Source of the DNA: Folioceros fuciformis
Lineage: Eukaryota
Direction of reading: 5' to 3'
Assembly: GCA_049999805.1 (NCBI GenBank)
Contig: JBNGIO010005880.1
Location: forward strand, 45,391 to 109,390
DNA length: 64,000 nt
Both the position numbers and the translations under genes were made by a program. The notes beneath the pieces are model-generated. The model ran no database searches and was not told the origin of the DNA. It was given only the letters and a program-made list of their open reading frames with translations. The first letter of the stretch is position 1, and each line of letters opens with the position of its first letter. Positions 23,701 to 61,000 of this stretch are shown here, piece by piece.

Positions 23701-24215
23701 GTGCCTTGAATATAGACCATAGACCATGGAGAACAAATTACAAATGGTAAAACGATGCAGTCGGATGGGCACAAATGCAACTTCAATAGAATGGAGGATT
23801 TTTGACGAGCCAAGCCTAACAATTAAGGTAGCAAATGGTTAAGGGATGTAAGGATGAGATGTCGAACAGGTATGGGCCTTGAACCGAACAATAATAACGG
23901 GGCTTGGAGTTATGTGAGGTGGAAGGGGAGGAAGTATGTGTGATATAGAGAGAGAAGGAGGATGGGGCCAAACGTGGACCTTATTCAATGCACATATGAG
24001 GGAGTCGAGGTGAGATCCTTCCACTATGCATAGCATGGGAGTAAAATGTGTGGGCATGGAGAGCGACACACACACGAGACCCTTCAGACATAATGGAGTA
24101 ATAGGGAACTCTCAATGAGGGAGAGCAATGGCAATTGGAGGGGTGTAGGGGAGGCGACAAATAAAGATGGCGATGGAAAGGGCGTAGGGGATGTAGAGGA
24201 GGAGGCCTTAGATGT
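17750..24215. mobile_element. Decayed retrotransposon-like region, including a degenerate accessory/coiled-coil ORF on + (about 20168-22830)
   Basis: A long reading frame broken by in-frame TAG/TGA (e.g. RLIVN*LLVTKTDHIT...PMDWGKVVAHRI...KLR*EKPPPSELAPFLFHIW), then a coiled-coil stretch. No intron-exon structure. LTRs, RT and integrase not recognised. Confidence 0.55.
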
Positions 24216-24217
24216 CA

Positions 24218-24424
24218 GCTATGGAAACCCTCTGCCTAGAGCCGTGGAAACCCTCTGCCAAAAGCCGTAGAAACCCTCTGCCAAAAGCCGTAGAAACCCT
24301 CTGCCTAGAGTCGTGGAACTCCTCTGCCTAAAGCCGTGGAAACCCTCTGCCAAAAGTTGTGGAAATGCTTTACCAAAAGCCATGGAAACCTTATGCCCAA
24401 AGCCATGTAAACCCTCTACCGAAA
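24218..24424. repeat. 23-bp tandem repeat, 9 copies (gccgtggaaaccctctgccaaaa)
   Basis: Units counted directly; no spacers. Confidence 0.95.
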
Positions 24425-26039
24425 AATGCTACAATATATGAAAGAGGAAGACCAAGCCTATTTTTCCTATTGTGAACCATCTTTGACTTTGAAACCAACC
24501 ATTGTGTGCGAAAAAGGAAAAGTGTATATAAATAGTATAGTGCAATATAGTATATCAAGGTGTAGTATATCAATGGTTTATTTCCAGTATAGTATTATAA
24601 TATTATCAACACATGCTTGCAAAATATATTTTTAAATAAATATAATGGTCTATATTATTTTCAATCTTTATGTATGATGTATGCATGTAAGAGATGTAGG
24701 TATGGAAGGAGTAGATTGATGGTAGGAAAATTTGAAGTGTAAATTCAAAATTCAAATCTTGATTTCCAGTTCCAAATTTTAAATGTATGAATTCAAATTT
24801 CAAACCATAGCCATAAATGTAACAGGCACTTGAATTAACCAGAAAGCTGTGCACAACAATCAAGGTAAACCTGAGATAAGATAAGAGTTACCAAGCTAGG
24901 TATGGAACCTCCATAAGTGTAACATAAAATGTAGCAATCATCAATGTTAGACTTAAAGACACCTTAGTGGTTCTACTTTATCGAGAGTGCAATGTAATGT
25001 AACAAGGATGGGAGCACCACCTCAACCTAGTCCTCTACAAAAGTGCAACATCATGTAATAATGCATCATAACCAGTTCCTATCAAAATTGTAATAAACTG
25101 TTTCAAACTAATCCATCCTTGTGGTGGCTCATATCTACATCAACTGCTGAAGTAAAGAAGTGCATTCATAGCTTCTTAAGCATTTTAAGTCGAGCAACAA
25201 CAAGGTTTAGGAAATAAGATTTGTATCTTGCACTCTTAACATTATTTTTATTAGTATCATAAATAATAAATTTTATTAGACTATCCTTCACAATAACTCT
25301 ACGTTAAAATACATACCTTAGTTGTTATATTTTACAATAAAATTTTCACCAATAAAAAGATCACAACAGAAGTCTTTCTTAGTTTAGAGAAATTTCAGCA
25401 TATATTAAGTTTGTGGTGTTTTCATGGTTTGTAATTTGTTCCATTTCAAGGCAAGTATAACACCTCTTATTTGGGAGTACAAGACTTTATGAAACATATT
25501 TATGAACACAAGACTATAGTGATGAATGCAAAGTTCATTTTTAGTTCATTCTACACTATGGTCATATCACATCATTCCTATCATCTTCCATCCAAGACAT
25601 TAGTGTGTAGCATGCTAGTTTGTAGTTATCTTATCATTAAACTCACTTAAATTTTTTCTTGTTTCAAGCACATCTTTAATAGATATTCATAGTATACACA
25701 TTAGCTTGCCACATCCAAAAAGAAGGTCATGGCCGAGGACACAAAGCAATGAATGTAATTCAAGTTATAGTCCACTTTTAATGTTAAAGTATATCTTGTT
25801 CAAAAATATCATCACGTAGTTATGCATTATGTACATATCTAACAATACGTTATTCTAAAAAAAAATTCTAATCTCATATATTTCTTTAACTTTCCATTGT
25901 ACCTTATATAAAGATGATAAATTTTAAAAATATATCACAACATATCTAAATATCATATTAATTAGCATAACATATTCCCAAAAAAAAATCTCATCAAGAT
26001 TCAATGCAAAATTTTGGTATATGAATACACATCCAACAT

Positions 26040-27906
26040 TTAATATTCCCTTGTAAGAAATTCATCCAACTCCGCATCATCTGCATTATTTCCATCTCTA
26101 TCCTTCTTAAGATTTCGTCTCTTTCGCCAAATATAGGATCGAAACATAATAGGAGGCCCTTTTCTTTTAAAAATAGGAGCTCTAGCACGAGCTAAACTTC
26201 GTTGTCTCCTTTCCTCTTGTTCCTGTTTTTGTTGCAGCAATTTGGCTGCTCGCATTCTATACCTTCTTTCCTTCTCCCTTATCTTTTCAGTTTGAATCAC
26301 GAAATCCACAGGGATATGTTCAATTGTGGTTAAACATTCTTCCAACTTGGCTTCTATGTTTGTGAGCATTTGAAGTGTATTTTGAGATACATCATAGTCT
26401 AACCCACATCTTGGGTATATTTCTATCACCTTACCTGCAATCTGCTCAAAAGTGACCGCATGTTTCTTATCCTCAACGTTTACAGTGGTTTGAGTTTGAA
26501 GGGTTTTGTGCCTCTCCTCTTCATTCTGGATGGCCAGCTCCAAGTCCTTCAGTTGTGAACGAAGGTTCGCTATCTTGGTGTCATTTTTCATGTGCGTAGC
26601 TTTATACTTGGTTTGGAGTGACTCAAGAGCATCTTCAGTATCTTGGCTCTGCTGCATCAGAGCCAAATTTTCCCCCTCCAATTCTCCAAACAGTTCCAGT
26701 AATTGATTGGGTTGTTCAAAGTACATTTTTTCCTCTAACTCATCTTCAATGTCACTTTCTTCTTCATCCTCATCGTTGTCCATACCAAGTATTCTAACCG
26801 ACATCTTCTCAGCGCGATCTAACTTTTGTGCACGTTCTATGTTCTTCTGTGCACTTTCTTGAGCTTTCTTCTCTTTGAGCTCTAGAATCATCTCTTGTCT
26901 CAACAATTTTTGCTCGTCTAGCCACTCTTTTGGAGTAAGGCTGACCAGGAAGTCTTTGTATTTTTTGCAATCCTCGAGTTGTTCCTCGAGTTTGTTTACA
27001 TCGCTGCGAAGCATTGCAATGATACCATTAAGCTTCTTGATTTNNNNNNNNNNNNNNNNNNNNNNNNNNNNNNNNNNNNNNNNNNNNNNNNNNNNNNNNN
27101 NNNNNNNNNNNNNNNNNNNNNNNNNNNNNNNNNNNNNNNNNNNCATCAAATTGTATGGTGTCTTCTTCCAACATGTCTTCACTCTTTCTCAATGCTTCCT
27201 CCCGTTGAAAAGTTTTATCTTCAAGTTTTCTGATTTCAGCGCGCTTTATGTCAAGGCTCATTTGTACAAGAAATATTTCTCTCTTTTTCTGGATGAACTC
27301 TTTCATATTTTCTTTCTCTCTATGGTAATGACTGGTTTGAAGAATTGGAGTCACTGGATTTTCTTCCATCACTTTTGCCATTTCTATATCCATTTGCTTC
27401 AGAATGCTTTTCAATGCATTTGAGCCGATTGTAGCACCCATCCTTGAAGCAAATGTTGTTCTCTCTGCAAGTGGCAGAGCTTGGATTCGCTTGATTTCTT
27501 GCCTCTCTTTGATTTTCTCTTCGGCTCTAATTTGAAATACTTTCTCATCAGGTGGCATGACAAATGGTATTTCAAACCACTCGTTGCAGAGTATCTCATC
27601 TTTGTCCATTTGCTCAGAAGATGCAGCATTTTCATTTTCAAGAGGTGGTGATTGCCAACTACTTTCTCCAATTCCAACTTTATCCTTTGTATGATTTGCA
27701 CTACTATCATGGCTATGCAGGGAAGTGGGTCTTGATGGAAGTTGGAGAGAGGTTGAAGTTGTATCAGAAACATTATCATTGCTACATGATCTAGCATCCG
27801 ATTTAGTTGAATTAACTGATGTTATGTCCGGTTCATTTTGTTTAAGAGATGGACTTGCTCTTGAGTCTGGCACAAGTGATGCTCTATTAACTACGGGAGC
27901 TGACAT
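26040..27906 (-). CDS. CFAP100: Cilia- and flagella-associated protein 100 (CCDC37/DUF4200), apparently intronless, spanning an assembly gap
   Basis: EKENMKEFIQKKREIFLVQMSLDIKRAEIRKLE...REEALRKSEDMLEEDTIQFD before the gap. After it: CKKYKDFLVSLTPKEW, MYFEQPNQLLELFGELEGENLALMQ, RARAPIFKRKGPPIMFRS. Confidence 0.85.
27044..27143. other. Assembly gap (100 N)
   Basis: Run of n characters; the round length suggests a placeholder. Confidence 0.99.
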
Positions 27907-28759
27907 GGTGATGGTTATTGTATCATATGTAGTTGAAAATTAAATAATAAAAATATTATTAATTAAACCCAAAACCTAAACAATATTTTAATTTACTTGA
28001 CTTAATTTTATTTTATATATAATTCTTTAGAGGGCCCTATGTTAAGGTACCCTACCTTTTCTCTCCTCCCTAGTCATTACCTACTACTTAGATCTTAATG
28101 TTAGAATGATAGCCAATTTTAAAATATTAGAATGTTCTATCTTTCTGGGATTAACTATGGAGTCTTGAAAAACAAAGTACCCTAATTATCATTGGAGGTT
28201 TGAGATGTTTTGTTCTTTGCATTTGAATCTCATCTTGAAAGTTTATGGTGTTGAAGGTTGTATCCCTTACTTTTGAAGCTCCTCTTAAAGGTTGTGTTTT
28301 TCAATTCACTTTGTAAATGCTTTATCATTGCCAAAAGATAGGCACCACATATGAAAGTGTGGTTGATACGTTCTTGGGGATATGGTATGTTTTAACACAA
28401 GCCTTGATAAACCCTTGAGAGTAGTCCTTGTTCTAAAGCCTTGTGGGTGAGTTTCAATTATAAGGAGAATGAGCATTACTAGACTGGGACATGGGGGTGT
28501 GTTGATGAAGCCAAGTCTCACATGTCATAGGGAAGCAAGGATCTCAGTAGTGAGAGGTGATGTGCTTGTGGGCTAAACAACAAGCAAGTAAACATACTTC
28601 ACTTCTAACATGCGCAAGTCACGTTCAAGCAAGCAATCCTTCGAAAGAACATCTCCCGACATGGAACCAATCATATCTTGGTTGAACCTTATCATATTTT
28701 CGAAGTAGTTGTATTTTCTTCTTTCTTTTGTGTTCTATTATAAGCATAGTTCATTCAAA

Positions 28760-29990
28760 GTTCCTTGGTTTGTTGGGTGAGAAATAAAATGGAGTCAAAT
28801 AGTCCTCACCATGTAGAACTTCTTGTCTAATAAAGCACTCCAAGCAACTTTGAATACGATGGATCATGGACTAATGTAGTTGACAAGTCAAGACTCCGAT
28901 ATGGCAAATCGAGGCAAGGGCAATCGCTATGTACTTGACAAGTCAAGACTCCAACATGGCAAATCGAGGCCCGGGCAATTGCTATGAAGCGTAATCGTCG
29001 AGGGATAGTTGCAGCGTAAGCTGTTGAAGCTTTACTCTACTACAGACTAGGTGGCCAGAAGGTGGTAGGCAGCGTTAGTTAATGCCCTGCAAGCGGTTTA
29101 GACTCCACTTCTACCTTCATCTCCTTCTCCTCTACATCTCGTACTTCTCCCTTATTTAGGGCTATCTCGTCGATATTTGACCACCCAAGGAATTGATAGC
29201 CCAAGGATAGTTTGTGGAGCCTAGCAAGGAAGTTGGTAGAGTCTAACATCCGAACTCACAACTACCTCGACTTTACCCCTTAGCTCAAGGAGGTAGGTGA
29301 CTTGGTTGAGCAAGTGGACCTAAGAATTTTCTAGGCTTACTGGAACATTTAGAATGCCACAGTACACAAGTTTGCATGAAATCTTTTGGCCTACGCACAG
29401 GGGAAGATGTGCTCTAAATAGATTCACAACAACCCCATGCATGTTATGGACCATCTAGATACTAGAAGTGGTATGTGAATGAGTTGCGATATAGTGGGTT
29501 GGGTTGTACTTGAGTGCCCACGGAATAAAGAGGAATTGGCCATGACCACAAAGTTTGTTGCTTCCTAGTTAGCAAAACAACTGTAGCCTCGATTCCATCC
29601 ACCGGTTCGCAACCACAATCGTAACATGAGTTCCACCTCGAGGCACTAGAAGAGATGGGGGACTTTGTGACATGCCTACAATGGCAATAACAAGAGATAG
29701 CGATGCAACTACATCTAGGATTAGCACCTGCAGCTTGGCCACATAGGAGACTTCCAACCCTAGCACACTAACACCTCATTTTCAAGCTTCTTGAGCCAGC
29801 ATGCCAAAGGAATGACAATCCTGTAATAGGCACCATAACTCTTATGAGCAACCATGAATCAAAACCTAAGGATGCAGGTAGGGGGTTACAACCCACCTTG
29901 TCAAGATGGTCCAATGTAACAAATGCTGTTTGTCCATGGTTCCAAGTATAGAGCCCTTGGTCAACATGTTTGACTTGCATGCATCAAACC
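28760..29990 (+). mobile_element. Decayed transposon relic apparently related to the 19.8-21 kb element
   Basis: Shares motifs with 19840-19950 (ggactaat...gacaag; cgtaatcgtc...gttgcag). Has an internal tandem duplication of about 52 bp near 28881-28986 and many stops. Confidence 0.4.
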
Positions 29991-30448
29991 ATTAGTAAGA
30001 GATGGAACCGCGAGTCTATTTAAAGTAGTTGTTGAATGAAGAAGGTTAATAAATCCCACACAACAAAAATATGTAAACCTAAACAAAACAACGGTAGAAA
30101 GTTGCACCAAATTCATGCAAGCTTCAGTTTTCCTTTAGAAGGCAGCCTTCAGCTAAATGATCCTAATTACAACGTAGCTAAATTGGAGCTGAAATAGCCC
30201 GGATTCATTACATCCAGAAAAGACAAATGAGGTCTAACTCTTGTAAAGGTTCAGGTTCAAGTCTTGTAATAGGTTCACACACGCAGCAACACATGGCTAA
30301 TTTAGTGTAACAAAATGGAATTGTCATTGTGGCTTAATTAATGTTTGCTACAATGTACAAAGTCATTATCAATTCCACAGCCATGAAAACTATAGTTATT
30401 CTTCAAGAACGATAGTCCACTAGAACAATTTACGGTTGACCATCTTTT

Positions 30449-31279
30449 TTATAAGAACCTCTCTCCACGAATGCGTCGTGCCAATTGCATGTCTTTGGGC
30501 ATTATAGTAACCCTCTTAGCATGGATGGCACAAGTGTTGGTGTCTTCAAAGAGCCCTACAAGATAGGCTTCACTTGCTTCTTGAAGGGCAAGAATTGCAT
30601 GGCTCTGAAATCGCAAGTCGACCTGTAGACATGCATATAATCTAACAAGTCAAGCAAAACTTCAAACTTACAACAAAAATAATGTAGACATGCATATAAT
30701 CTAACAAGTCAAGCAAAACTTCAAACTTACAACAAAAATAATATAAACCATAATATCGTTGATTACAAACAACTATGCATGTACAATTTCGCAAGGAAAT
30801 CTAGCATTTCAAAGACCAACACATAGCATTATTATAACATGAATCCAACTATAAGAGGTTGCTTGTTGTACCTTAAGGTCATGGGCAATCTCCTTCACCA
30901 AGCGTTGGAAGGGCAACTTTCGGATTAATAACTCCGTACCCTTTTGGTACTTCCTTATCTCACTGTACAACATATAATATACAACACACATCTCCGCAAC
31001 TCTTAAGATCATTCAGTACAAGCTGATGTACATTAAAGAGCTTAACTAAGGAGTTTCCATGCATACACAAAGAATGTGTGAAAGAAAGCTATTACACATA
31101 ACCTTCTCTTAATGCTTGTAGAGAGCTTACCGAAGAGCCACGACTCCAGGACGATAGTGACGTGGCTTCTTGATGCCTCCTACCATTTGACTTTTCCCCT
31201 TAGTAGCCTTGGTGGCAAGTTGCTTTCTTGGACCCATACCACCATTGCTCCTACGGGCAGTTTGCTTAGTGCGAGCCAT
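30449..31279 (-). CDS. Divergent histone H3 variant (H3.3-derived); exons 31131-31279, 30872-30962, 30449-30622; 136 aa after Met
   Basis: Spliced translation: [137 protein letters not shown]. Both introns are GT-AG and the frame is intact. Confidence 0.93.
30624..30741. repeat. Perfect 59-bp tandem duplication in H3 intron 2
   Basis: tgtagacatgcatataatctaacaagtcaagcaaaacttcaaacttacaacaaaaataa occurs at 30624-30682 and 30683-30741. Confidence 0.95.
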
Positions 31280-32009
31280 AGTATGCTTAGTATGAATTGA
31301 GGGTGTTCTTATCCGGTTAAGTAATGTCTTGTATAGAGCAAAAGCTTAGTTTCAGATCTAAAAAGCTAGTAGGTCTAAGATATTTACATATGTGTGCAAC
31401 TAGTGCATATATAGGCATAAGGATCTAATAGTGCTAATAGAAAAGCACCCTAGTTAGAATATTTCTCGGAATAGATCATTCCTTCTTCATTCTAAAAGGA
31501 TTCAAGAAAAAGTAATGTATTCATAGTATTAAAATAGTATTTTTTTATATTTTAAATTATTAATAATAAGATGTGAATATTTTGATAGTTAGAATCATAT
31601 AGATACTATGAGTATATTATTTTTTTCTAGAATCCTTCTCCTTGAAGAAGGAATGATATATTTGAAAAATATAAATAAAATTTCTATTTTATACCAAGAA
31701 AGAGGAAGTGTTACATTCATGAAGAAAGATGAACGAAGTAAGTGCATGTAGGTACATCATACGAAAGATAAAAACAATTGATACACATAGATGGAGGAGA
31801 ATGCAGCTATGAGTAGCTAATTACTAAGAAAATTACACATGTTTGGAACAATGTGTAATCCTGTACATGAACTTGGATCACAAATTAAGTTAAATATTAT
31901 TAGTGTGATAATTTTTTATGCTTGTAGCAAACGTCTCTCTTAAGTTTAGCTAGTAGAGTAATATGGTAATACATTTTAGTTGATACAAAAGCAAACTTTT
32001 TCTATGTGT

Positions 32010-32468
32010 CTAATCAGCTGCACTAACGTCATAACCAAGATAACAATCTGCGAGATGGAAACATACTGTAAAAGAATCTTTACATAACCGAGTAAAAATA
32101 ATGTGCTGGATGTATTGAATACAAGTACGACATTGAAGTGGAGTTATCATAGTCGAATGACCAAGAGAGCAGTAGGCATTACCTCTTGCTCTTATGATGC
32201 TTCCACCAAGCTTAAGTGTTAATGGACGAGGAGTGTTTGGAAAAGTGTGATAAGCTTCTTCTACTAGTGAAGAAACTAAAATTTGAACTAAGACTTGTAA
32301 CTTTTGATCCACAATTTGTCCATCACAATACATTTCTTTTATTGTTGTATTGGGTGGAAGCTCGGGACCATAAAGAGAGAATGCAAATCCGTTAGCAACA
32401 TTGATGAAAATAACATAGTATATATATACATAATAAACTATATATAAAAACAGATTTGAAGAAGCCAT
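32010..32468 (-). CDS. Secreted cysteine-containing protein, Gnk2/DUF26 (ginkbilobin-2)-like
   Basis: Hydrophobic N-terminus followed by YC...GNAYC-x12-CRTC...LC...DCYLGY. The spacing resembles a single DUF26 domain with a lengthened C-x8-C-x2-C loop. Confidence 0.6.
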   Translation of the reverse strand: MASSNLFLYIVYYVYIYYVIFINVANGFAFSLYGPELPPNTTIKEMYCDGQIVDQKLQVLVQILVSSLVEEAYHTFPNTPRPLTLKLGGSIIRARGNAYCSLGHSTMITPLQCRTCIQYIQHIIFTRLCKDSFTVCFHLADCYLGYDVSAAD

Positions 32469-32966
32469 TCTCACTTATATATATGTGCCAATTGAATTCC
32501 TTGGCATAACACCTGGTAGTGGATTTGTTTCGTGAATGTAGAATCTCTAGATCCAAATCGGTGTGCATATAATTTGGTGGAACTCGTAAACACCGTGCAG
32601 ACTCTGGTGCCCTAATTCGTGAAACGAAAACAAGCTACTGCCGTACCTGAGACCGAATTCCCAGATTCCTCTGCCGTATGAGTAGTGAAGCACTTTGAGA
32701 ATTTTGCTGTCGTCAGAGAGATTTCCCGCTGTTTAGACTCTCACTCAGCGGCCACGCCTAAACCTTTTCCAGCTGGCATACATTTCAACGAAAACATCAA
32801 TATTGTAGACACACAGCTGCTGCACTCCGCGGAGGTCCTGCTTACGGTAGAATCTGCCAAGAAAACTTGCGACGACTCCGCTGAGCTTAGGATACCGGCG
32901 AGTTCAGCCCACCGAACTACAATAAAATCTAGATGCATTTACGCAGAGCTGTCTGTGCGGCAGCGG

Positions 32967-35401
32967 TTATGCCAGACCAGCCTCCTTCAATACTGCTTCG
33001 AATGCGTCGTCGTCGTTATATTGTACCTGAAATAAGGAAGAACAACATACATGTGGGGCTTAGAATACAGAGAAAGACGTCAACAAGCGCTGTGACTGCA
33101 TGCAAGTAAGTGCAAGACCCCTTACATTCGGAATAATGCGGTTGAAATGGCGTGCGATTTTGTCGAGATCTTGTTCATCCTGCTCACTCACCACCAAATT
33201 GAAGGCAGCACCTGGTAAAAGACCCATTCTCCAGAGGTTAGCACTCTGAAGCCAAAGAGACAACTTCATCAACAAGCCTAATGTTATGAAACTGTATGTA
33301 CCTTTGCGACCAAATCGTCCACTCCGTCCAATCCTGTGTAGATAGACTTCGTAGTCGGGTTCATACGGACGGTTTTGCTTGACCGGAATGTCAAAATTCA
33401 CAACTAAGGTCACCTGCAATTGTACACGAAGACTCACATCCTCTATTTGAGATTGACGAGAGGCAACAAAAACCCTACACAAACGCATGTACTTACTTAC
33501 CTGTGCCTGGTCGAATCCTCGCGCCAGTAAATCTGTTGCTATCAGGATCTTAGTCTCTCCAGACCTAAACTCTCGAATTACGCGATCTCGATCCTCGTGG
33601 CTGAGTCCCCCTTGGATTGAAGTGCACTTGTGTCCATCTGCTTCTAGTTTTCTGTGCAACTCACTGGCACTGCTTCTGCTTCGCACGAAAATGATGGACT
33701 GACCAAGCTTTTCTGCCACTGGAAATATTCGGTCCCTCAATACTTCAATCTTATCCAGCGGGGTAGGACACTTCACTCGATACTGCTTGATTACGTCCAG
33801 TGACAAGTTCTCTTTGGGGACAAAAATAAAGTTCGCTCTCTGGACAGTCCTCAGAGCAAATTGCTTCACTTGCTCACTGTAAGTAGCTGAGAAAAGTAAT
33901 ATCTGCCAGGAGCGCACCACACACAGCTTGCTTCAGCAGATGTGCACCAATTCATATCACAACGGGACAAAAGGGAAAAAATAACAAGACGAGCTTCTAC
34001 CTGGAAGTCTCCTCCTCTGGACCTGCTTACGTCCTTGATGATCCGTTCAGAATCGTCCTTGAAGCCATACTGCAGGTGCCAACGGCAAGTATTACTGAAC
34101 ACCAAACCCTGAGGACGATTACGTTCCGAGAAGAAGTACTCGGCTTCTACGGCTGAAAAGGTCAAGCTAATCTCCCATGGCAAAACACCTCCATAACTCT
34201 CAAAATAAACATGGGCATGCCTTCCTCGCACACCTGATCTAACATATGGTCTGCTTCATCGAAGACAAGCACTCTGATAGTTCTGGTATTCAGAATCTTA
34301 TCCTTCGTCATCCACCTCTTCAAGGTACCCGGAGTGCCTATCACAACCTGATCCACCACTACCCCACGCCTTGTAGAGGAAAGCAAACTAGACTCAGTTG
34401 GAATAGCAAGCACCGATGTGATGCCAGTATACTTTCCCATTCTCAGCAAAACCTCCTGATTCTGCACACACCAAAACCTTCCTGTGAAACATGACCGATA
34501 AGCACAACCCGAGCGGCGGCAGCGCCAACACCACCATCAATCTACCACGTAGTAACACTGCCACTTTCCAGGCCAGCAGTTCCAAGCCACCACCCACACA
34601 GACCTGAATAGCCAGCTCCCTAGTCGGACAAACACAGAGAGCCTGCGGAGCTCTCAAAGTGGGATCCACTCGGCTAAGCATCCCAAGCACAAAGCACGTG
34701 GTTTTTCCTGATCCGTTGTGTGCCTGCGCAATCAGGTTCTGATACGGCGGCCTGACTATCATCGGCAAAGTAATCGCTTGAATTTTGCTCGGCCTCTCAA
34801 ACTTCATTTCTGAGTAGATGCCTTGAAGAAGGGCGGGACTCAGCATCAAGTCCTCAAACGAACTAGCCGACTCATACGGAGTGTTGGGATCGGCAAGCAC
34901 TTTCTTGATTTGTGTATCAGGCAACGCTTCCACATCCTCGTTCAGCTGCGGTGCCTGCAAAGCTACCTCAGGCTTGTCCAATTTCTCGCCTTCGTCCACT
35001 TTCAGCGACTCAAGTGCCAGTGCCGCTGTCAGATCTGCCGCAGTCCCCGTTTGAGTCTCCTCTTCCTTTCCATGCACCTTCTCCTTAACCTGGTCCTCCT
35101 CCCCCGCTTTCTCGTTCACCTGCTCCCTCTCCTTCACCTGCTCCTTCCCCGTCACCTGTTCCTTCTCCTCATCCTTCACCTGCTGCTTCTCATCCTTCAC
35201 CTCCTGCCTCTGCTCCTTCTCTTCATCCTTTTCCTTTTCCTTCTCCTTCGCCATCACCGGCGTCCCAACCCGCTCCTTCTGTCCCTGGTCCTCGTCCGCG
35301 ACGGTCACGGCCCTGGTTTCATCTTGGGCTGCGATGTCAGGCGGGTCCACCATCAACGAGACCAACGCCAGACCAGCCAGGTCCTCATCTGACAAGTTCA
35401 T
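32967..35401 (-). CDS. LOS4: DEAD-box RNA helicase DDX19/Dbp5 (plant RH38/LOS4), multi-exon
   Basis: FERPSKIQ, QNLIAQAHNGSGKTT, PTRELA, GTPG, DEADHML, FSAT, ARGFDQ, HRIGRSGRFGRKG; C-terminus AFEAVLKEAGLA*. Confidence 0.92.
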
Positions 35402-36200
35402 TCCCGGTCCGTCCTAAACCCTTCTGCTTCTCCAAAACCTGGAGCAAAGCACTGTTGTCGGACTACTTAAGATTTATAGCCGGGACATCACACCGTTCTC
35501 CAGATTCGAGGACAATTTCGTGTAAGAATAATACCCTTAAAATAATAATAAGTCTTCATGTGACCGTTGGCCCGGTACCTGCTTCATGCTTCCTTCTTGC
35601 ACTGCAGGCCTCGCGGCCTGTCAGTGAATCCCAGCTCGCTCGCATCATCAGCTGCGGTCGATTCTGCTGCAGCCTGGCTTCGTCCAAGCGAGGTGGAGAA
35701 CCCTGCGTCGGTCTTCAGACACGCACGTTTGTGCGGCTGTTGGGATTGGACTCCTGCGGCTTCTGGTGCTCTTCTCGTTACACTTTGAGGGGATTCTCGT
35801 CAAGGACGTTTCTCCGGGGATCCGGTCAAGAGGCGGAGGATTGCGTGTGAATCTCCTTCTTTGGTTGGCGAATTTGCAGGATTAGGCACTGCGGGGAGCA
35901 TCGGATTGCTGACGGTTTGCATGGTGGAGAAGGCGGCTTGGCGGGCGTGGATGAAGCTTCCATTGCGCAAGAGCCTTACGGGGATGGGAGTGGTGTTCGG
36001 TGACCCGAATCTAGGAAATTCACATCGTCAATTGTTCCGGCCTCCTGCCTGACATTTGATTTTACCCGATTCCAGGAAGTTCACCTCGTCAATTGTTCCT
36101 GCCTCTACCCTGACATTTGATTTTCTGAGTGGGTATGTTGTGTGAGGTGTAGTGTAGGTTGTGTGCATGTGGCGGTGCCTTGCAGGAGAGTGCAGTAGGA

Positions 36201-38241
36201 ATGGTGACGACTGTGCAAGTCCCAGAGAAGACAATTCGTGGACGAGCTGATAGACAACGGCCCTCGAACCTGCTTATTCCCAGTAATGGAAGAAATCTCT
36301 CTCAGTTTCAGGTGAGAGGGTCATGAAGTTGAGCGTTTTTGGGTGAAAAAATACTGCCTCAGCTGAGGGGTTGCATCTGAAACAGGGTGACAGGTTTATC
36401 CCAACCCGCAGTTCCATGGATCTGGATGTGGCCAATTTCAACTTGTTGAGGGTGACTAAAGATAATGCAGCTTCATATCTAGACGTTTCCTCTCCCATTA
36501 AGGTTGAACTCAGTTCCTAGCCACTGTTAGCTCAACTCTTCGGGTGCGATGGGCGGTCTGCAGTTTTTGTTGATTGGGAGGCATTCGATTTTTGTGCAGG
36601 AGGTGTATAAGCGGCAACTTGCTGAGAATCTGTTGCACGATGTGTCAGCAGTGGACAGCCCAAAAATTCTGTCGTTCAAACAGAAAAATCCTTCTTCACC
36701 TTGTTCCTTGCAAGCGGACAAAGCTGGATTGACTATTCCTTCACCGAAAGCTTTCCGGCACATACCACAGGTCAGTGTCTCTTCACATGCATCAGATGGA
36801 GAGCTGGAGTATCACTTGTCTGATTGGTTGAAGGTTTTTGTTCCTTGTGCAGTCGCCAGTGAGGATCCTGGATGCACCCGAGTTGGTCGATGACTACTAC
36901 TTGAATCTTCTGGACTGGAGCTCCAACAATGTGGTGGCAGTGGCACTGGGCACCTCGGTCTATTTGTGGTATGCTGATAGTGGAGAAATAAAGAAACTGA
37001 TGAACGCATCTGCGGAAGAAGACTTTGTGACTAGTATCGCGTGGGCTGAAGATGGGAAGCATATTGCAGTAGGTCTGAACAGCAGTGAGATACAACTGCT
37101 AGATGTGATGGAAACATGCAAGGTTTGTTAGTCAACCTAGAGACTTCGCTTACATGCTTTGACTGCCTGGGAGCGTAATTGTTGACACCCTTATTTCTAC
37201 ATATCAAGGTTAGGAGCATGCAAGGGCATCGATCACGTGTTGGAAGTTTGGCTTGGAATGGATCAACACTGACATCGGGAGGTCGGGACGGCAACATCAT
37301 GAACCACGATGGTACAGCTCCTTTCAGGAATGGCTGTCGTATTCAATTGCTTGGTTTTTCAACGGTTGCTTTCACGATTTTCTCACATGCCCTATGTGAT
37401 TGTTTCTTCAGTGCGGGTACGAAACCATATCTCCTCAGTTCTTTCAGGTCACACGCAAGAAGTGTGTGGACTCAAGTGGTCCCCATCTGGACAACATCTA
37501 GCAAGCGGAGGAAATGACAACATTCTGTGCATATGGGATGCAAGTTACATCAGTGCGGCAAGACCAGGACAACAGAGCGCGTCCTTCTTGTACAAAATTG
37601 ATCAGCACCAGGCAGCAGTAAAAGCCCTTGCATGGTGTCCATTCCAGCGCAACTTACTAGCATCCGGGGGAGGTACAGCTGATCGGTGCATCAAGTTCTG
37701 GAATATACACACGGGAGCTTGCATCAAGAGCGTGAACACGCTTTCGCAGGTTTGTCAGTCGTTTCCAAAAATGCTCGCCCTTGTTCCTGGTCGCATCCAC
37801 ATTTGCTTTGATATCAAGTTGCCATGGTTTGTTCCGCTTACAGGTTTGTGCACTGGAGTGGAGTCCATTTCAAAAGGAAATTTTGAGCAGCCATGGCTTT
37901 AGTCTCAACCAGTTATGTTTGTGGAAGTATCCCACGATGGTGAAGATAGCTGAACTCAGGGGTCATACTGCCCGTGTCTTACATCTCGCTCAGGTCAGAA
38001 AAACTCGGGAAGACATCAACCAGGTGTTTGTCAAGCTAGTCTGTTGCACCTGGTGCTCCAACTTGATGCTGAATAGACGACGTATTTCTGACAGAGCCCA
38101 GACGGAAGGGAAGTCGTGTCTGCTGCTGCAGACGAGACACTACGATTTTGGAACGTTTTCGACTCACCTTTGCAACATAAGAAGCTCTCTCGCTCTGCCG
38201 GAGTACAGGCCGAGAGGATGTCCACGCGGAGCATACGATAG
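36201..38241 (+). CDS. CDC20: CDC20/Fizzy APC/C co-activator (WD40), multi-exon
   Basis: C-box [50 protein letters not shown]...[15 protein letters not shown] and a C-terminal IR tail (RSIR*). The start is inferred. Confidence 0.9.
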
Positions 38242-53651: not shown

Positions 53652-53998
53652 GCTTCGTGCTTGATTTGGCTACAAGGAGGAGCAGTGCTGAAACAGGACT
53701 CTCCGCATCCACGACATAACTTGTCCGATAACTCGTTAACCTTGTTAGCTCTGTTAGCTAACCCTAACATGCAATGTGACCTGATGAGAGTCTCAATTCC
53801 CTTTCGATTCCATGCATCACGTAGGACCAGGTGGGCTAATCGCACACCTTAGAAACTAATTATGTATTTAGCTTTTATTTAAAATGGTAGGCGTGATGGC
53901 GATGGCGGCTAACGAGTCCATGCCTCATGTTTGAATAGCCCACGAGGAGCATCGCTCAGACACAGGACTGGGTCTGGAATGGTGCTGTTCCGGCAAGC

Positions 53999-56968
53999 AT
54001 GGCCTTGTCCCACATCCACATGCCGCTTTCGGATGCTAATGCTCCAGTCTCCGGAGTCGTGAAGGCTGAAACCGTGAGAGGACTGTGTCAGCATCGGCGG
54101 CTCAGTGAGGCTGTTGAGGCTCTAGGAGTTCTGGTGCACACAGACTGTCATGTCTCCGCGTCTCTGCTCTACGCGGTGCTGAAGGGATGTGTGGGTAAGA
54201 GGGATCTGGCTCTGGGTCGCAGAGTTCATGCTCTTAGTGTGAAGAAGGGGTATGAGTCGGACACGTTCTTGTGCAACCACATCCTGCGGATGTATGCTTC
54301 TCAGGGCAGGTTGCAAGAGGCAATGGATGTGTTCACCACGGTTGCCAGGCCAGATGCCTTCACGTGGTCTGCCATAATTTCTGCACACGTTAGACATGGG
54401 CAGGATCGGCAGGCCTTGGAACTGTATGATCGGATGCGTAGGTCACGTGTGGCGCCAGATGGACATGTTTTCGTAGCAGCCCTGCAGGCTTGTGCGAGGG
54501 GAGCAGATTTGGAGTCCGGGCAGCAGGTTCATGCTGATGTGTTGACAAGTGGCCTTGAGCGTGACTTGTTTGTGCGAAATTGCTTGATTGACATGTACGC
54601 AAAATGTGGCAGCTTGAAGGACGCGCAGAGATTGTTCGTCGGGGTTGGGGACAGGGATGTAGTCACTTGGAATGCTATGATAGCAGGGTATTCCCAGCAG
54701 GGCATGGGGCCGAATGCCCTTCGTCTTTACACGGTTATGCGAGATGAAGGAATCGTGAAGCCGAATGCTGTGACGTTTGTGTGCCTCCTTCAGGCTTGTG
54801 CATGTGTGGGTGCACCGGCTTTGGAGGAGGGGAAGGAGCTTCATGCACGGATTAATGAACTAGGACTTCAGGCTGATGTGGTTGTGGCTGGGAGCCTTGT
54901 GAACATGTATGTGAAGTGTGGCAGCCTCGTGGATGCCCGGGGAGTGTTTGATGGATTGGGTCAGAAAAATGTGGTGACCTGGAGTACCATGATAGCAGGA
55001 TATTCTCAGCAAGGAATGGGGCAGGAGGCTCTGCAACTGCACGCCATTATGCAAGAAGAAGGCATTGCCGCCCCTGATTCTGGGACATTTGTTTGCCTTC
55101 TGCAGGCATGTGCAAGTGTGGGCACCCTGGCTTTGGAGATGGGAAAGAATCTTCATTCACAAATTAGAAAAGAAGGACATGAAACTGATGTGTTCGTTGG
55201 CAGCAGTTTGGTGAGCATGTATGCTAAGTGTGGCAGCCTGGAGGACGCCCAGAGGGTATTTGACGGACTCTGTCAAAAGGATGTCGTGACATGGAATGCC
55301 ATGATTTCAGGGTATTCACAACAGGGCATGGGCCAGGAAGCCCTTCGTCTTTACAGTATTATGCAAGGAGATAGCAAGGCCGTACCAAATTCTGTGACAT
55401 CTGCCTGCCTCCTTCAGGCATGTGCATGTGTGGGCAGCCCGGCGCTGGAGATGGGGAAGCAGCTGCACGCACACATTAAAGAACGGGGACAACAAGCCGA
55501 TCTTTTTGTAGCCAACAGTTTGGTAAACATGTATGCAAAGTGTGGCGGCATCGAGGATGCCCAGAGGCTGTTTGACGGGCTTGGTCAGAAAGACATCGTG
55601 ACATGGAACGCCATGATCGCAGGGTATTCCCAGCAGGGCATGGGCCAGGATGCGCTCCATCTATACAGTGTTATGCAGGAGGCACCTGGCATCGCTCTAC
55701 CTAATTCCATGACATTTGCGTGTCTCCTCCATGCATGTGCTAGTGTGGGGACGCCAGCTCTGGAGGAAGGGAGGCAGCTCCACTTCCAAATCAGAGAACG
55801 AAGACATGATTCCGATGTGTTTGTCGCCAATGGGTTGGTCAACATGTACGCAAAGTGTGGCAGCTTGGAAGATGCCGAGAAAGTGTTCGAGGAACTCGTT
55901 CAAAAGGACGTGGTGACATGGACTGCTCTCATTGCCGGATATTCCCAGCAAGGCATGGGCCAGGAAGCCCTTCGTTTGTACAGTGCTATGCAGGAGGATG
56001 GGAAGACGGTACCTGATTCCGTCACATTTGTATGCCTCCTGCAGGCATGTGCAAATGTTGCAGCTTTGCATTTGGGACGGCAGCTACACGCACAGATTGA
56101 AGAACAAGGGCTTCAAGCGGGTGCATTTGTAGCCCACAGTCTGATAAACATGTATGCCAAGTGTGGGAGCATGGTTGAAGCGCAGGAGGTGTTTGATGCA
56201 TTGCCCCGAAGAGATGCTGTAGCCTGGAATGGATTGATTGCAGGATACAGTGCACAAGGAGATAGTAAGGACGTCTTTGAGTCCGTTGTCAGGATGAGGG
56301 ACTGTGGTATACAGCCGGACAGTATAACGTTCCTTGGTATATTGATGGTATGCAGTCATACGGGTCAAGTGAACAAGGGGCAGGAGTACTTCGACGCCAT
56401 GAGCAGCCACTACGGCATCGCAGCCTCGGTGGAGCACTACACATGCATGGTTGATCTCCTGGGGCGCGCAGGTCGACTGAATGAGGCAAAAGCATTGATA
56501 AGTACAATGCCTGTACCTCCCAATGCTGTGGTTTGGCACACTCTGTTAGCAGCGTGTAGTAAGTGGAGCAATGTGGAGGTCGGACGCCATGCCTTTGATG
56601 AGTCGCTGAAGCTGGATGAAAAAGATGCTGCAGCGTATGTGTTGATGTCAAACATATACACCAGTGCCCAGATGGGGGAGCAGGCGCAGGAGATGCAGGC
56701 GAGGAGAAAAAGCATCCAGGCCTGGAAGCAGGCGGGTCAGAGCTGGTGGACGGACATGGACGGGACGGTGCATTATTTCCTGGTCGGGGTTAGGAAGAGT
56801 CCATCAAGGCTCAAACTCTTTCGTTGCAAATTGAATAATGCAGCATATCCTCAACGTCTTCCCTCTTTAGCATGTCACATCTTTGATGATATAAAGCAAT
56901 GCCATTTGCGTGGGCTCAGTCAAAAGCTGGCAGAAACGCATGCTCTAAACGACGCGGTCTCCCTATAA
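53999..56968 (+). CDS. PLS-class PPR protein with E domain, WW-type PG box and degenerate/truncated DYW domain
   Basis: Intronless 989-aa ORF of P-L-S triplets (NSLVNMYAKCGSLEDA, VVTWNAMIAGYSQQG), then HYTCMVDLLGRAG, WHTLLAACSKW and KQAGQSWWTD. Confidence 0.93.
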   Translation: MALSHIHMPLSDANAPVSGVVKAETVRGLCQHRRLSEAVEALGVLVHTDCHVSASLLYAVLKGCVGKRDLALGRRVHALSVKKGYESDTFLCNHILRMYASQGRLQEAMDVFTTVARPDAFTWSAIISAHVRHGQDRQALELYDRMRRSRVAPDGHVFVAALQACARGADLESGQQVHADVLTSGLERDLFVRNCLIDMYAKCGSLKDAQRLFVGVGDRDVVTWNAMIAGYSQQGMGPNALRLYTVMRDEGIVKPNAVTFVCLLQACACVGAPALEEGKELHARINELGLQADVVVAGSLVNMYVKCGSLVDARGVFDGLGQKNVVTWSTMIAGYSQQGMGQEALQLHAIMQEEGIAAPDSGTFVCLLQACASVGTLALEMGKNLHSQIRKEGHETDVFVGSSLVSMYAKCGSLEDAQRVFDGLCQKDVVTWNAMISGYSQQGMGQEALRLYSIMQGDSKAVPNSVTSACLLQACACVGSPALEMGKQLHAHIKERGQQADLFVANSLVNMYAKCGGIEDAQRLFDGLGQKDIVTWNAMIAGYSQQGMGQDALHLYSVMQEAPGIALPNSMTFACLLHACASVGTPALEEGRQLHFQIRERRHDSDVFVANGLVNMYAKCGSLEDAEKVFEELVQKDVVTWTALIAGYSQQGMGQEALRLYSAMQEDGKTVPDSVTFVCLLQACANVAALHLGRQLHAQIEEQGLQAGAFVAHSLINMYAKCGSMVEAQEVFDALPRRDAVAWNGLIAGYSAQGDSKDVFESVVRMRDCGIQPDSITFLGILMVCSHTGQVNKGQEYFDAMSSHYGIAASVEHYTCMVDLLGRAGRLNEAKALISTMPVPPNAVVWHTLLAACSKWSNVEVGRHAFDESLKLDEKDAAAYVLMSNIYTSAQMGEQAQEMQARRKSIQAWKQAGQSWWTDMDGTVHYFLVGVRKSPSRLKLFRCKLNNAAYPQRLPSLACHIFDDIKQCHLRGLSQKLAETHALNDAVSL

Positions 56969-57800: not shown

Positions 57801-58094
57801 TCGCGTCGCGAACCAGGGGCAAACGTCGATGCAAACTTTCTTGAGCTCAACCCATCATTTTGTGGTTGGTGATTCGCAGTCTCACTGTCAGTGTGAAAGG
57901 ATTTGCATCCGGGTGGAGGCCGATCGCCTGCTCGGTTCACCGGGTCTGCTGCTCAGTTGGGAAGCCACGGACGGCCTCCGGAATGTCCCTGACGGCTCGC
58001 TCGAGCTTCTTCTGCAACATGACAATTCTTGGTTTTTCAGGCAGTTCTTTCAGACGGGTCCGTAGCTATTACATCCGGCGTGCTCCTGCGAGAC

Positions 58095-61000
58095 ATGCCT
58101 GTGCCGAGGTTGACAGGCATTCTAGGAAGATCTCCCGCTCGGTCAAGGTATCAATTGTTGGCATTCAACCAAGCCGCCAGGTCTGCAAAAATCCCAGCCC
58201 TTCCAAGCGGATGTCTGGCTGGAGACGGACTTTCCACCTGGCCGGGCTATCTTGAGCCTCACAAGACCTCAGGCTACGAAAGTGTCGTCACGGCTGAAGC
58301 TGTGCGCGAGCTATGTCATGAAGGCCAGTTCATTGAGGCTGTTGAATTATTGGGAATTTTGGTGCAGACAGACTGTTGTGTTTCGAGATCTCTGTTCTAC
58401 ACTATCCTGAAAAGATGTGTGGAAACTAAGGATCTCGTGGTGGGTCGCCGTATTCATGCTTTAGCGGTATACAATGGATATCAAACGGACACGTTCCTCT
58501 GCAACCACGTATTGAGGATGTATGCTTCTCATGGCAGACTGGGAGATGCGATGGATGTGTTCACCATGGTTTCCGAACCCGATTCTTACATGTGGTCCTC
58601 CATCATTTCTGCGAATGTAAAACATGGAGAAGCCAGACAGGTCACACAATTGTACAATCGGATGCGCAGGTCGAGTGTAAGGCCGGATGGGCATGTATTT
58701 GTGGCAGCCCTCCAGGCTTGTGCAAGGGGAGCAGACCTGAGAACTGGGAAGCAGGTGCATGCTGATTTGCTGGCCAGTGGGGTTGAGCCTGATTTGTTTG
58801 TCTGCAACGGGTTGGTGGACATGTATGCAAAGTGCGGTAGCTTGGAAGACGCTCAACGAGTGTTTGATGCACTCTGTGTTAAAGATGTTGTAACGTGGAG
58901 TACCATGATAGCTGGGTATTCTCAGCAAGGCATGGGAAAGGAAGCACTTGATCTGTACAGTATCATGCAAGAAGATGGCATGGCTGTGCCCAACTCGGTG
59001 ACATTTGTGTGCCTCTTGCAAGCATGTGCAAGGTTGGGGACAGCCGCGTTGGACAACGGGAGGCAGCTGCATGCGCAGATCAAAGAACGAGGTCACGAAG
59101 CTGATGTCTTTGTAGCAAACAGTTTGGTCAACATGTATGCCAAGTGTGGCAGCTTAGAGGATGCCCACAGCGTGTTTGATGAACTTGTTGGAAGAGATGT
59201 GGTGACTTGGAATGGCATGATAGCAGGGTATTCCCAACAGGGCATGGGGCAGGAAGCCCTTCATATGTACGGTGTTATGCAAGAAGAAGGCATATCTTTG
59301 CCCAATTCTGTGACATTTGTCTCTCTCTTGCAGGCCTGTGCAAGTTTGGGTACTGTAGCATTGGACAAGGGGAAGCATCTGCATGCACAGATAAAGGAAC
59401 TAGCACTTCAAGCTGATGTGGTTGTTGCAAGCAGTTTGGTGGATATGTATGGGAAGTGTGGCAGTCTAGAAGATGCTCGTGGCGTGTTTGACACCCTTGA
59501 TAACAAAAATGAGGTAGTGTGGAGTGCCATGATAGCAGGATATTTGCAGCAAGGCATGGGCCAGGAAGCCCTTCGTCTTGACATTGATATGGAAAAGGAG
59601 GGCATTATTGCAGCCGATCCTGTGACATTAGCATCCCTTCTGCAGGCTTGTGCCATTGTGGGTGCCCCAGCTTTGGAGAAGGGGAAGCAGCTTCATGCAC
59701 GGATTAGAGAACAAGGACTTGAGGCTAGTAACTCGTTAGCAAACAATTTGATCAACATGTATGCAAAGTGTGGCAGTCTAGAGGATGCTCAGAGCGTGTT
59801 TCAGGAACTTGGTGAAAAAGATGTGTTCACGTGGACTGCTCTAATTGCAGGATATTCCCAGCAGGGCATGGGGCGGGAAGCCCTCCGTCTCTACAGTCGT
59901 ATGCAACAGGCCAGCAACATTACCCCTGATCATGTGACATTTGTTTGCCTCCTGCAGGCCTGCGCAAATGTGGGCACCCCAGCTTTGGAGAAGGGAAAGG
60001 AGCTTCATGCACAAATTAGCCAACGAGGACATCAGGCAGTTGTGGTTATGGCCGACTGTTTGATAGACATGTACACGAAGTGTGGGAGCCTAGGGGATGC
60101 TCAGATGCTGTTTGACGGACTTGGTGAAAGGGATGTGAAGACATGGAATGCTATGATTTCTGGATACTCCCAGCAGGGCCTGGGCCAGGAAGCCCTTCAT
60201 CTCTACAATGCTATGCAAGAAGAAGGCATTGCGACACCCAGTCCCATTACTTATGTGTGCCTCCTGCAGGCGTGTGCAAGTGTTGGCAGCCCAGCTTTGG
60301 AGATGGGGAAGCAGCTGCATGTGCAAATCAGAGCACGTGGACATGAAGACGATTTGATTGTGGCAAACAGTTTGGTGAACATGTACGCAAAGTGTGGCAG
60401 CCTAGAGCATTCGGAGCGAGTGTTTTACGGACTTGGACAGAAGGATGTTGTGACATGGACTGCGCTAATTGCAGGATATTCCCAGCAGGGCAGGGGCCTG
60501 GACGCCCTTGGGCTTTACATTTCCATGCAAGAAGATGGCATGGCTGTACCCGACTCTGTAACATTTGTGTGCCTCTTGCAGGCGTGTGCTAGTGTGGGTG
60601 CCCCAGCCTTGGAGAAAGGGAAGCAGCTTCATTTACAAGCCAGAGAACGAGGCCTTGAAGGCAATACATTTGTCGCCAACAGCTTGGTAAACATGTATGC
60701 AAAGTGTGGCAACGTGGAGTGCGCCCAGAGAGTGTTCGATGGACTCAGTCATAAGGATGTGGTGACGTGGAATGCCATGATAGCAGGGTATTCCCAGCAG
60801 GGTATGGGCCACGAAGCCCTTCAACTGTACAGTGCTATGCGAGAACAGAGCATAGGTGGACCTGATTCCTTGACATTCGTCTCCCTCCTGCAGGCATGTG
60901 CAAATGTCGCAGCCTTGCATGTAGGACGGAAGCTACATGCACAGATTGAGGAACAAGGGCTTCAGGCTGATGCGTTCATAGCAGGCAGTTTGATAAACAT

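Follow-up and report, generated by a model that had tools for sequence, protein, structure and literature searches.

An atypical histone H3 gene in Folioceros fuciformis, of likely H3.3 descent, with altered tail positions 9, 14 and 25–32

A histone H3 tail that has lost the lysines at positions 9, 14 and 27 while the fold behind it is largely kept raises the question of whether its gene still supplies a working histone or is a silent copy that is decaying into a pseudogene. Such a gene lies on the minus strand at 30449–31279 of the window, the 64-kb stretch of Folioceros fuciformis DNA that was analysed. Its three exons splice into a 414-nt coding sequence for 137 residues that contains zero stops. 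Exon 1 (31279–31131) runs for 149 nt from the ATG and encodes residues 1–48 together with two bases of the codon for R49; it carries R9, N11, M14, G15 and the sequence T-K-G-K-S-Q-M-V at positions 25–32. Intron 1 (31130–30963; 168 nt, GC 0.35) is a GT..AG intron in phase 2 that opens with GTAAGC and closes with ACAG. Exon 2 (30962–30872; 91 nt) encodes residues 49–79, with K79 as its final residue, and carries G57, K72, H76 and L78. Intron 2 (30871–30623; 249 nt, GC 0.30) is also of the GT..AG type, running from GTACAA to ACAG in phase 0, and exon 3 (30622–30449) supplies residues 80–136 and the TAA, with V80, H87, I89, L90, S96, T109, M124 and a C-terminal F-L. The first-pass annotation, made from the sequence alone, had described three in-frame exons with canonical splice sites and no stops, and the spliced coding sequence confirms that structure. 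No second in-frame ATG lies between the upstream stop and the start ATG.

Exon 3 alone matches the Pfam Histone family (PF00125) with E=7.1e-23 and 81.6 bits (cut-off 26.4). The tail (residues 1–49) can be aligned to solved H3.3 chains with no gap and an E of about 5e-15, mouse H3mm7 (5xm1) being its top solved-structure match, and a tblastn search of the 64-kb window with two H3 proteins matched only these three exons. The Pfam match and the tblastn exon matches show that the reading frame is not a product of chance; the locus is a real, unbroken plant gene encoding a protein that probably derives from H3.3. Within intron 2, next to the acceptor, a 59-nt sequence is tandemly duplicated (30624–30741), its two copies being 100% identical. 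The AG of the acceptor is completed only at the exon-side copy, by the G that follows it, and the DNA unitigs of sequencing run X1 end within the duplication (30653 and 30713).

How far the protein has moved from its presumed source was judged against the canonical plant H3.3 unit inside database protein P0147 (residues 1–136), which has the signature T31 Y41 H87 L90. The two are 81.5% identical over 135 residues with no indels, the best of 339 alignments of at least 125 residues to the retrieved proteins, and the total difference amounts to 26 substitutions and one added C-terminal Leu. Sixteen of the substitutions lie in the tail (residues 1–45: K9R, T11N, K14M, A15G, A25T, R26K, K27G, S28K, A29S, P30Q, T31M, T32V, V35I, H39R, R40H and T45V), where the block at 25–32 is wholly replaced, A-R-K-S-A-P-T-T having become T-K-G-K-S-Q-M-V. 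The other ten lie in the fold (S57G, R72K, Q76H, F78L, T80V, V89I, A96S, L109T, I124M and A135F), leaving 80 of its 90 positions unchanged. Since an H3.1-type unit (P0249) likewise has S96 and M124, two of the ten fold changes could be ancestral states. When set beside 101 distinct ungapped H3 units from the retrieved proteins, a sample biased by one search that picked tails resembling this one, nine of the 26 substitutions occur in no unit (T11N, K14M, A25T, K27G, P30Q, T31M, F78L, T80V and L109T), and Arg at position 9 is common.

Every substitution in the initial list is present in the alignment, although V35I, H39R, R40H, T45V, T80V, V89I and A96S had been omitted from it. The alignment to H3.3 likewise bears out the statements that K4, S10, K18, K23, K36, K37 and K79 are retained, that K9 is lost and that the ARKS context at 27 is destroyed. 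The accompanying view that the protein had shed its repressive sites and kept its active ones is too simple: it holds for K4, K18, K23 and K36 only, whereas K9, K14 and K27 have also disappeared as acetylation sites, as have T11 and T32 as phosphorylation sites. As to the origin of the 25–32 block, a compensated frameshift was rejected, the other two frames, read by eye, giving stops and no ARKSAPTT-like peptide. An in-frame route is possible, by which a Gly codon was gained before K-S and one codon was lost after it, K28-S29 then corresponding to the former K27-S28.

In addition to the PF00125 fold match, the protein opens with the H3 N-terminal sequence ARTKQTAR, and its place within the plant H3 family can be read from published rules. 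Plant H3.3 genes have introns and the signature T31 Y41 H87 L90 (PMC4357034, section 3.1); H3.1 genes are intronless with A31 F41 S87 A90, and the H3.1A of non-flowering plants has A31 Y41 (S/Q)87 L90 (PMC4357034). An 'H3-like' or atypical class is set apart by deviation at 31, 41, 87 or 90 and/or a degenerated N-terminal tail, with introns optional (PMC4357034, section 3.1), and substitutions of K4, K9 and K27 are frequent among its genes, for example K27M in rice Os02g25910 (PMC4357034, section 3.2). The present gene has the introns of H3.3 but, with M31 Y41 H87 L90, only three of the four signature residues, so that by the published rule M31 makes it H3-like, or atypical, and not H3.3; the 16 altered positions among the 45 of the tail are the second feature that it shares with that class. 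Its introns, M31 and H87 rule out H3.1 and H3.1A, and the gapless tail alignment, the level of identity to H3.3 and the lack of any indel rule out CENH3.

Descent from H3.3 is nevertheless likely from the introns taken together with H87 and L90. The same ancestry had been proposed at the outset, and the introns and H87 still speak for it, but Y41 and L90, which had also been cited, are found as well in the intronless H3.1A of non-flowering plants (PMC4357034). The metagenome H3 loci retrieved are uninterrupted in 71 of 80 cases, in a set that has no land-plant H3.3 gene structure; in one locus of TYHL type (L046) an intron lies three codons beyond the position of intron 1 and in a different phase. 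A viral or transposon origin was also considered and rejected, given the spliceosomal introns, the 81.5% identity to plant H3.3 and the identity of viral H3 tails, which reaches at most 68%. No terminal repeats were found flanking the gene.

The distribution of the substitutions indicates what kind of history the gene has had. Changed positions make up 16 of 45 in the tail and 10 of 90 in the fold (Fisher p=0.0011, or p=0.00026 once the two possibly ancestral sites are dropped). In a neutral simulation of 3000 runs, in which the coding sequence was mutated randomly until it held 26 replacements, which required about 41 substitutions on average, the tail took at least 16 replacements in 0.07% of runs. 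So marked a skew is improbable under uniform decay and the fold therefore appears constrained: purifying selection was acting on the fold while most of the divergence built up, and a working histone fold was encoded for most of the history of the gene. The concentration of change in the tail had earlier been held to favour selection over decay. The skew itself stands, but relaxed constraint on the tail fits it as well as positive selection does.

This history has to be weighed against a rival account in which the locus is now a silent relic, a long-functional or slowly drifting duplicate that is no longer expressed and is becoming a pseudogene, its frame open for lack of time. We consider this possible, though on balance doubtful. 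The tail-to-fold skew (p about 0.001) places most of the divergence under fold constraint, and the gene shows neither indels nor stops, its splice sites and ATG being undamaged. Counting substitutions only, with indels and splice sites not counted, the open frame and the ATG were kept in 21% of the simulated runs, a proportion that leaves room for a relic; under an assumed indel:substitution ratio of 0.05–0.2, however, the chance of no frameshift is 0.2–0.001 on top of that 21%. Exon GC, at 48% (GC3 0.48), has also not relaxed to the 30–35% of the introns and the AT-rich surroundings. On the side of a relic are the position of the gene in an AT-rich island (GC 0.29–0.45), a foldback element in its promoter, the fresh 59-nt duplication in intron 2, and the fold residues T109 and L78, each found in none of the 101 sampled H3 units. 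The H3-like class, moreover, is reported to include likely pseudogenes that go undetected in expression data (PMC4357034, section 3.4).

A relic would also be consistent with the outcome of the searches for an orthologue. With the tail as query, a protein database search gave a best identity of 73% among the matches listed (120 of 201; 232 candidates) and a second protein search gave 71% (16 matches, 19 candidates). Protein-guided scans gave a best tail identity of 71% in metagenome contigs (80 loci kept of 472 relatives) and of 68% over the whole tail in viral contigs (45 loci), and a scan of metagenome contigs with a degenerate tail motif gave 0 matches. Neither an orthologue nor a near-identical tail was thus found in the protein databases, the metagenome contigs or the viral contigs, where the matches listed were only of canonical-type H3. 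The search with the exon 3 protein is uninformative, as its matches, with a top identity of 91% among the 120 listed, were almost all fused multi-histone predictions. The collections searched are poor in non-model plant lineages, so the blank is no sign that relatives are without the gene. In the accessible text of the literature searched, no plant H3 combining K9R, K14M and a replaced 25–32 block was found.

From the intact structure, the constrained fold and the altered tail we favour the reading of a lineage-restricted and apparently single-copy duplicate of a plant H3.3 gene, one that probably still encodes a nucleosome-competent atypical H3, and would put the probability of this reading at roughly one in two. 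Its expression would be expected to be confined to an unsampled tissue or condition.

The genomic surroundings bear both on the soundness of the locus and on where such a histone might be used. The gene sits within an AT-rich block at about 24–33 kb, where GC is 0.29–0.45 compared with about 0.5 elsewhere in the window; the window also contains two long PPR-repeat ORFs. Upstream, the H3 gene borders on a DEAD-box helicase gene, also on the minus strand (32455–35405; Pfam DEAD and Helicase_C), whose 3' end at 32455 bounds the 1.2-kb upstream region of the H3 gene. Within that region a TATA-like element (TATATA; 31407–31414, minus strand), picked out by eye from the sequence, precedes the ATG by about 130 nt. 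Farther upstream, 190–380 nt from the ATG, lies an imperfect, MITE-like foldback of about 190 nt (31470–31662) made of nested inverted repeats with arms of 20 nt (95%), 16 nt (94%) and 23 nt (87%). A gene for a DUF4200 coiled-coil protein (26040–27939), likewise on the minus strand, is the next one, 2.5 kb downstream; it is a long ORF starting at about 27906 whose sole interruption is a run of 100 N at 27044–27143.

The abrupt fall in GC across 24–33 kb, that run of N and a 23-nt repeat array (24222–24425), where the DNA unitigs have many loose ends, could be taken to mean that the block was mis-joined or is a contaminant and that the H3 gene came with it. We consider such an artefact very improbable. 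Unitigs of X1 cross the edge of the block (31863–32751 overlapping 32723–37000) with no differing letters and a depth of about 12 on both sides, and they tile the H3 gene and both flanks, again with no differing letters, at a depth of 11–14; X1 is possibly the assembled sample itself, so this agreement is not independent. RNA run X4, from a separate 2017 study, yielded a spliced helicase contig with six CT..AC joints that extends, free of mismatches, to 32455 in the stretch of lower GC, from which X4 can be taken as RNA of the same species. The H3 gene is itself of plant type, with H87, L90, the stated identity to plant H3.3 and spliceosomal introns.

The same RNA run says little about expression of the variant. 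Neither the variant nor its DUF4200 neighbour is covered by an X4 contig, which is no evidence either way since rare transcripts drop from contigs. No run catalogued as RNA was listed as containing the stretch, and runs X5 and X6 contributed no sequence to it. The only X4 sequence over the H3 gene is a 36-nt piece (31209–31244) that belongs to another H3 mRNA; the loose ends of that mRNA, read by eye, encode a canonical tail with K9, T11, ARKS at 27 and A31.

The DUF4200 neighbour suggests one particular place of use. The N-terminal part of its ORF matches the Pfam family above the cut-off (E=2.2e-10, 41.4 bits), and the closest clusters in the atlas consist of animal DUF4200 proteins, with scores of 0.90–0.93. 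We take the family to be ciliary or flagellar, in which case its expression in a land plant would presumably be in sperm, and a ciliary DUF4200 gene would imply a plant with flagellate sperm. The H3 variant might accordingly be imagined as an independent counterpart of Arabidopsis H3.10, at work in spermatids or antheridia of a species whose sperm swim, where methylation at K9 and K27 would be reset as sperm chromatin is remodelled or ahead of that step. That the DUF4200 gene is the next one downstream, shares the strand of the H3 gene and lies in its AT-rich island is suggestive, and Talbert et al. describe lineage-specific H3 variants, often of the germline, as common, polyphyletic and fast-evolving (PMC3380720).

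We nevertheless hold a role in the sperm lineage to be unlikely. Adjacency to a single gene is weak evidence, and the loss of acetylation at K9, K14 and K27 is not obviously a design for keeping active marks. H3.10 is reported to be sperm-specific and a direct target of DUO1, for which the consensus is RRCSGTT (PMC6290024). This consensus is absent from 29098–32962, which spans the gene, its introns and the 1.2-kb upstream region; in the whole window it has 27 matches compared with 38.25 expected by chance. The same source reports that Marchantia has no male-germline H3 variant and that its sperm chromatin uses a protamine-like protein (PMC6290024). The use in sperm reprogramming put forward in the first-pass annotation thus gains no direct support, there being no DUO1 consensus in the promoter and no orthologue found. 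Unlikelier still is the fuller form of the idea, a gametangium or sperm H3 refractory to both the H3K9-CMT loop and PRC2, lacking K14 and encoded next to a flagellar gene within an AT-rich block that is silent in vegetative tissue, as an H3.10 analogue of a non-seed plant. If true, it would place a sperm-type variant in a group in which Marchantia is reported to have none.

For the reading that we favour, a lineage-restricted atypical H3 that can still enter nucleosomes, a general mode of action may be proposed wherever the gene is used. The kept fold with H87 and L90 would allow incorporation into nucleosomes outside replication, possibly by HIRA-type deposition. Both residues are tied to HIRA in two sources (PMC10426802, PMC12591220), but H3.14, which has H87 and L90, is there reported to be deposited without HIRA (PMC12591220), so these residues do not settle the chaperone. 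L109T, which adjoins the H3–H3' interface region, and F78L might reduce the stability of the resulting nucleosome.

Once deposited, the variant would offer no site for methylation or acetylation where it has Arg (position 9), Met (14) or Gly (27). The core recognised by the SET domain of PRC2 is A25-R26-K27-S28, and peptide arrays are reported to favour R or K at −1 and A, V or L at −2 (PMC9255955). Of the two lysines that the variant has in this region, K28 (G-K-S) is preceded by G at −1 and by K at −2, and K26 (T-K-G) by T at −1. Neither context fits the preference, so neither lysine is a likely PRC2 substitute. We infer that the 25–28 region would resist PRC2, by extrapolation from the animal enzyme. 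Deposition of the variant would replace marked H3, diluting K9 and K27 methylation and breaking its propagation by readers and writers; for H3K27me3, such dilution is reported with Arabidopsis H3.15 (K27H) and H3.10 (PMC8566409, PMC10426802). Variant nucleosomes would also be blind to GCN5-type acetylation at K9, K14 and K27 and could no longer be phosphorylated at T11 and T32, whereas K4, K18, K23 and K36 would stay usable. If the gene is expressed, it would constitute a natural experiment in how histone exchange by itself can clear chromatin of, or shield it from, the action of the two repressive pathways, and the principle known from H3.10 and H3.15 would reach beyond flowering plants. As it stands, it is another lineage-specific atypical H3, a kind of gene that is common and polyphyletic and whose function is often unproven.

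Among known systems, canonical plant H3.3 (HTR4/5/8 type) shares the introns, Y41, H87, L90 and the same length to residue 135; the present protein differs in having M31 for T31 and in the loss of K9, K14 and ARKS(27). Arabidopsis H3.15 (HTR15, At5g12910) resembles it as an H3.3-like histone with no lysine at 27, and is reported to be unable to receive PRC2 methylation, its deposition removing H3K27me3 (PMC10426802). H3.15 differs, however, in having His at 27 (K27H) and in being wound- and callus-induced, and the variant described here is also without K9 and K14. H3.10 (HTR10/MGH3, At1g19890) is likewise H3.3-derived, with introns, H87 and L90, and is reported to be immune to K27 methylation (PMC8566409, PMC10426802); the Folioceros gene lacks the DUO1 consensus in its promoter. 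The lily generative-cell H3s, the mammalian testis histones H3.4/H3t and the H3mm proteins are alike in kind and not by descent, all being lineage-specific, fast-evolving paralogues. The likeness to the plant H3-like class (Cui et al. 2015, PMC4357034; after Ingouff and Berger) lies in a deviant position 31, a degenerated tail and introns, although that class is heterogeneous and forms no clade. Atypical plant H3s are thus already known as a class; what appears to distinguish this member is that K9, K14 and the whole of 25–32 have changed jointly while K4, K18, K23, K36 and the fold are kept.

The H3 variant, a three-exon, atypical H3.3-like gene on the minus strand (30449-31279), lies together with a DUF4200 gene inside an AT-rich block at 24000-33000, where GC content per kb is 0.29-0.45 compared with approximately 0.5 in the surrounding sequence. 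Depth of the DNA sequencing run X1, which may derive from the sample used for the assembly, is approximately that of the flanks across the block, with the exception of 26170-27900, where it is about 5-8. At the edge of the block (24222-24425), a 23-nt unit forms an array with 8.8 copies. In the X1 unitigs this array has numerous loose ends and a depth raised to 66.8, and the unit therefore probably has further copies elsewhere in the genome.

Two repeat structures are associated with the H3 gene itself. A perfect 59-nt tandem duplication (30624-30741) occupies the 3' end of intron 2, where it doubles the branch-point and pyrimidine region and leaves the AG single; given that its copies are 100% identical, the duplication is regarded as recent. 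In the promoter, 190-380 nt upstream of the ATG, nested inverted repeats make up a foldback that resembles a MITE (31470-31662). Separately, 2.1 copies of a 55-nt unit with 89% identity occur at 28874-28986, between the DUF4200 and H3 genes.

The DUF4200 ORF (26040-27939, minus strand) is uninterrupted over approximately 630 codons from a start near 27906, with a 100-N run (27044-27143) hiding its middle. Its GC3 is low at 0.29-0.40, and its product is a coiled-coil protein of the cilia/flagella type. The ORF has zero introns, whereas the neighbouring DEAD-box helicase gene (32455-35405, minus strand) has at least six. For the helicase, a single spliced contig of depth 238 from X4, an RNA run of a separate 2017 study of the same species, confirms six introns of 87-164 nt, and a 3' UTR of approximately 600 nt extends into the AT-rich block. 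Elsewhere in the window, two PPR-like repeat ORFs lie next to each other on the plus strand, both uninterrupted, at 53939-56968 (1009 codons) and 58023-61718 (1231 codons). Judged by eye, the C-terminal end of each looks similar to the E/DYW region known from editing factors and is apparently truncated.

A 36-nt piece of the variant's exon 1 (31209-31244) is shared with an X4 RNA contig that comes from a different H3 gene of this species. The loose ends of this contig, read by eye, are GC-rich and encode a canonical tail with K9, S10 and T11, A-R-K-S at 25-28, and A31 and A32. In the X4 sample, then, the species transcribes an H3 gene of the canonical A31 type. A metagenome contig, L046 (3001-3729), encodes an H3 with the plant-type signature T31, Y41, H87 and L90. 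This gene has a single phase-0 intron placed after the residues R-E-I-R, three codons further downstream than intron 1 of the Folioceros fuciformis variant (31130..30963, phase 2).
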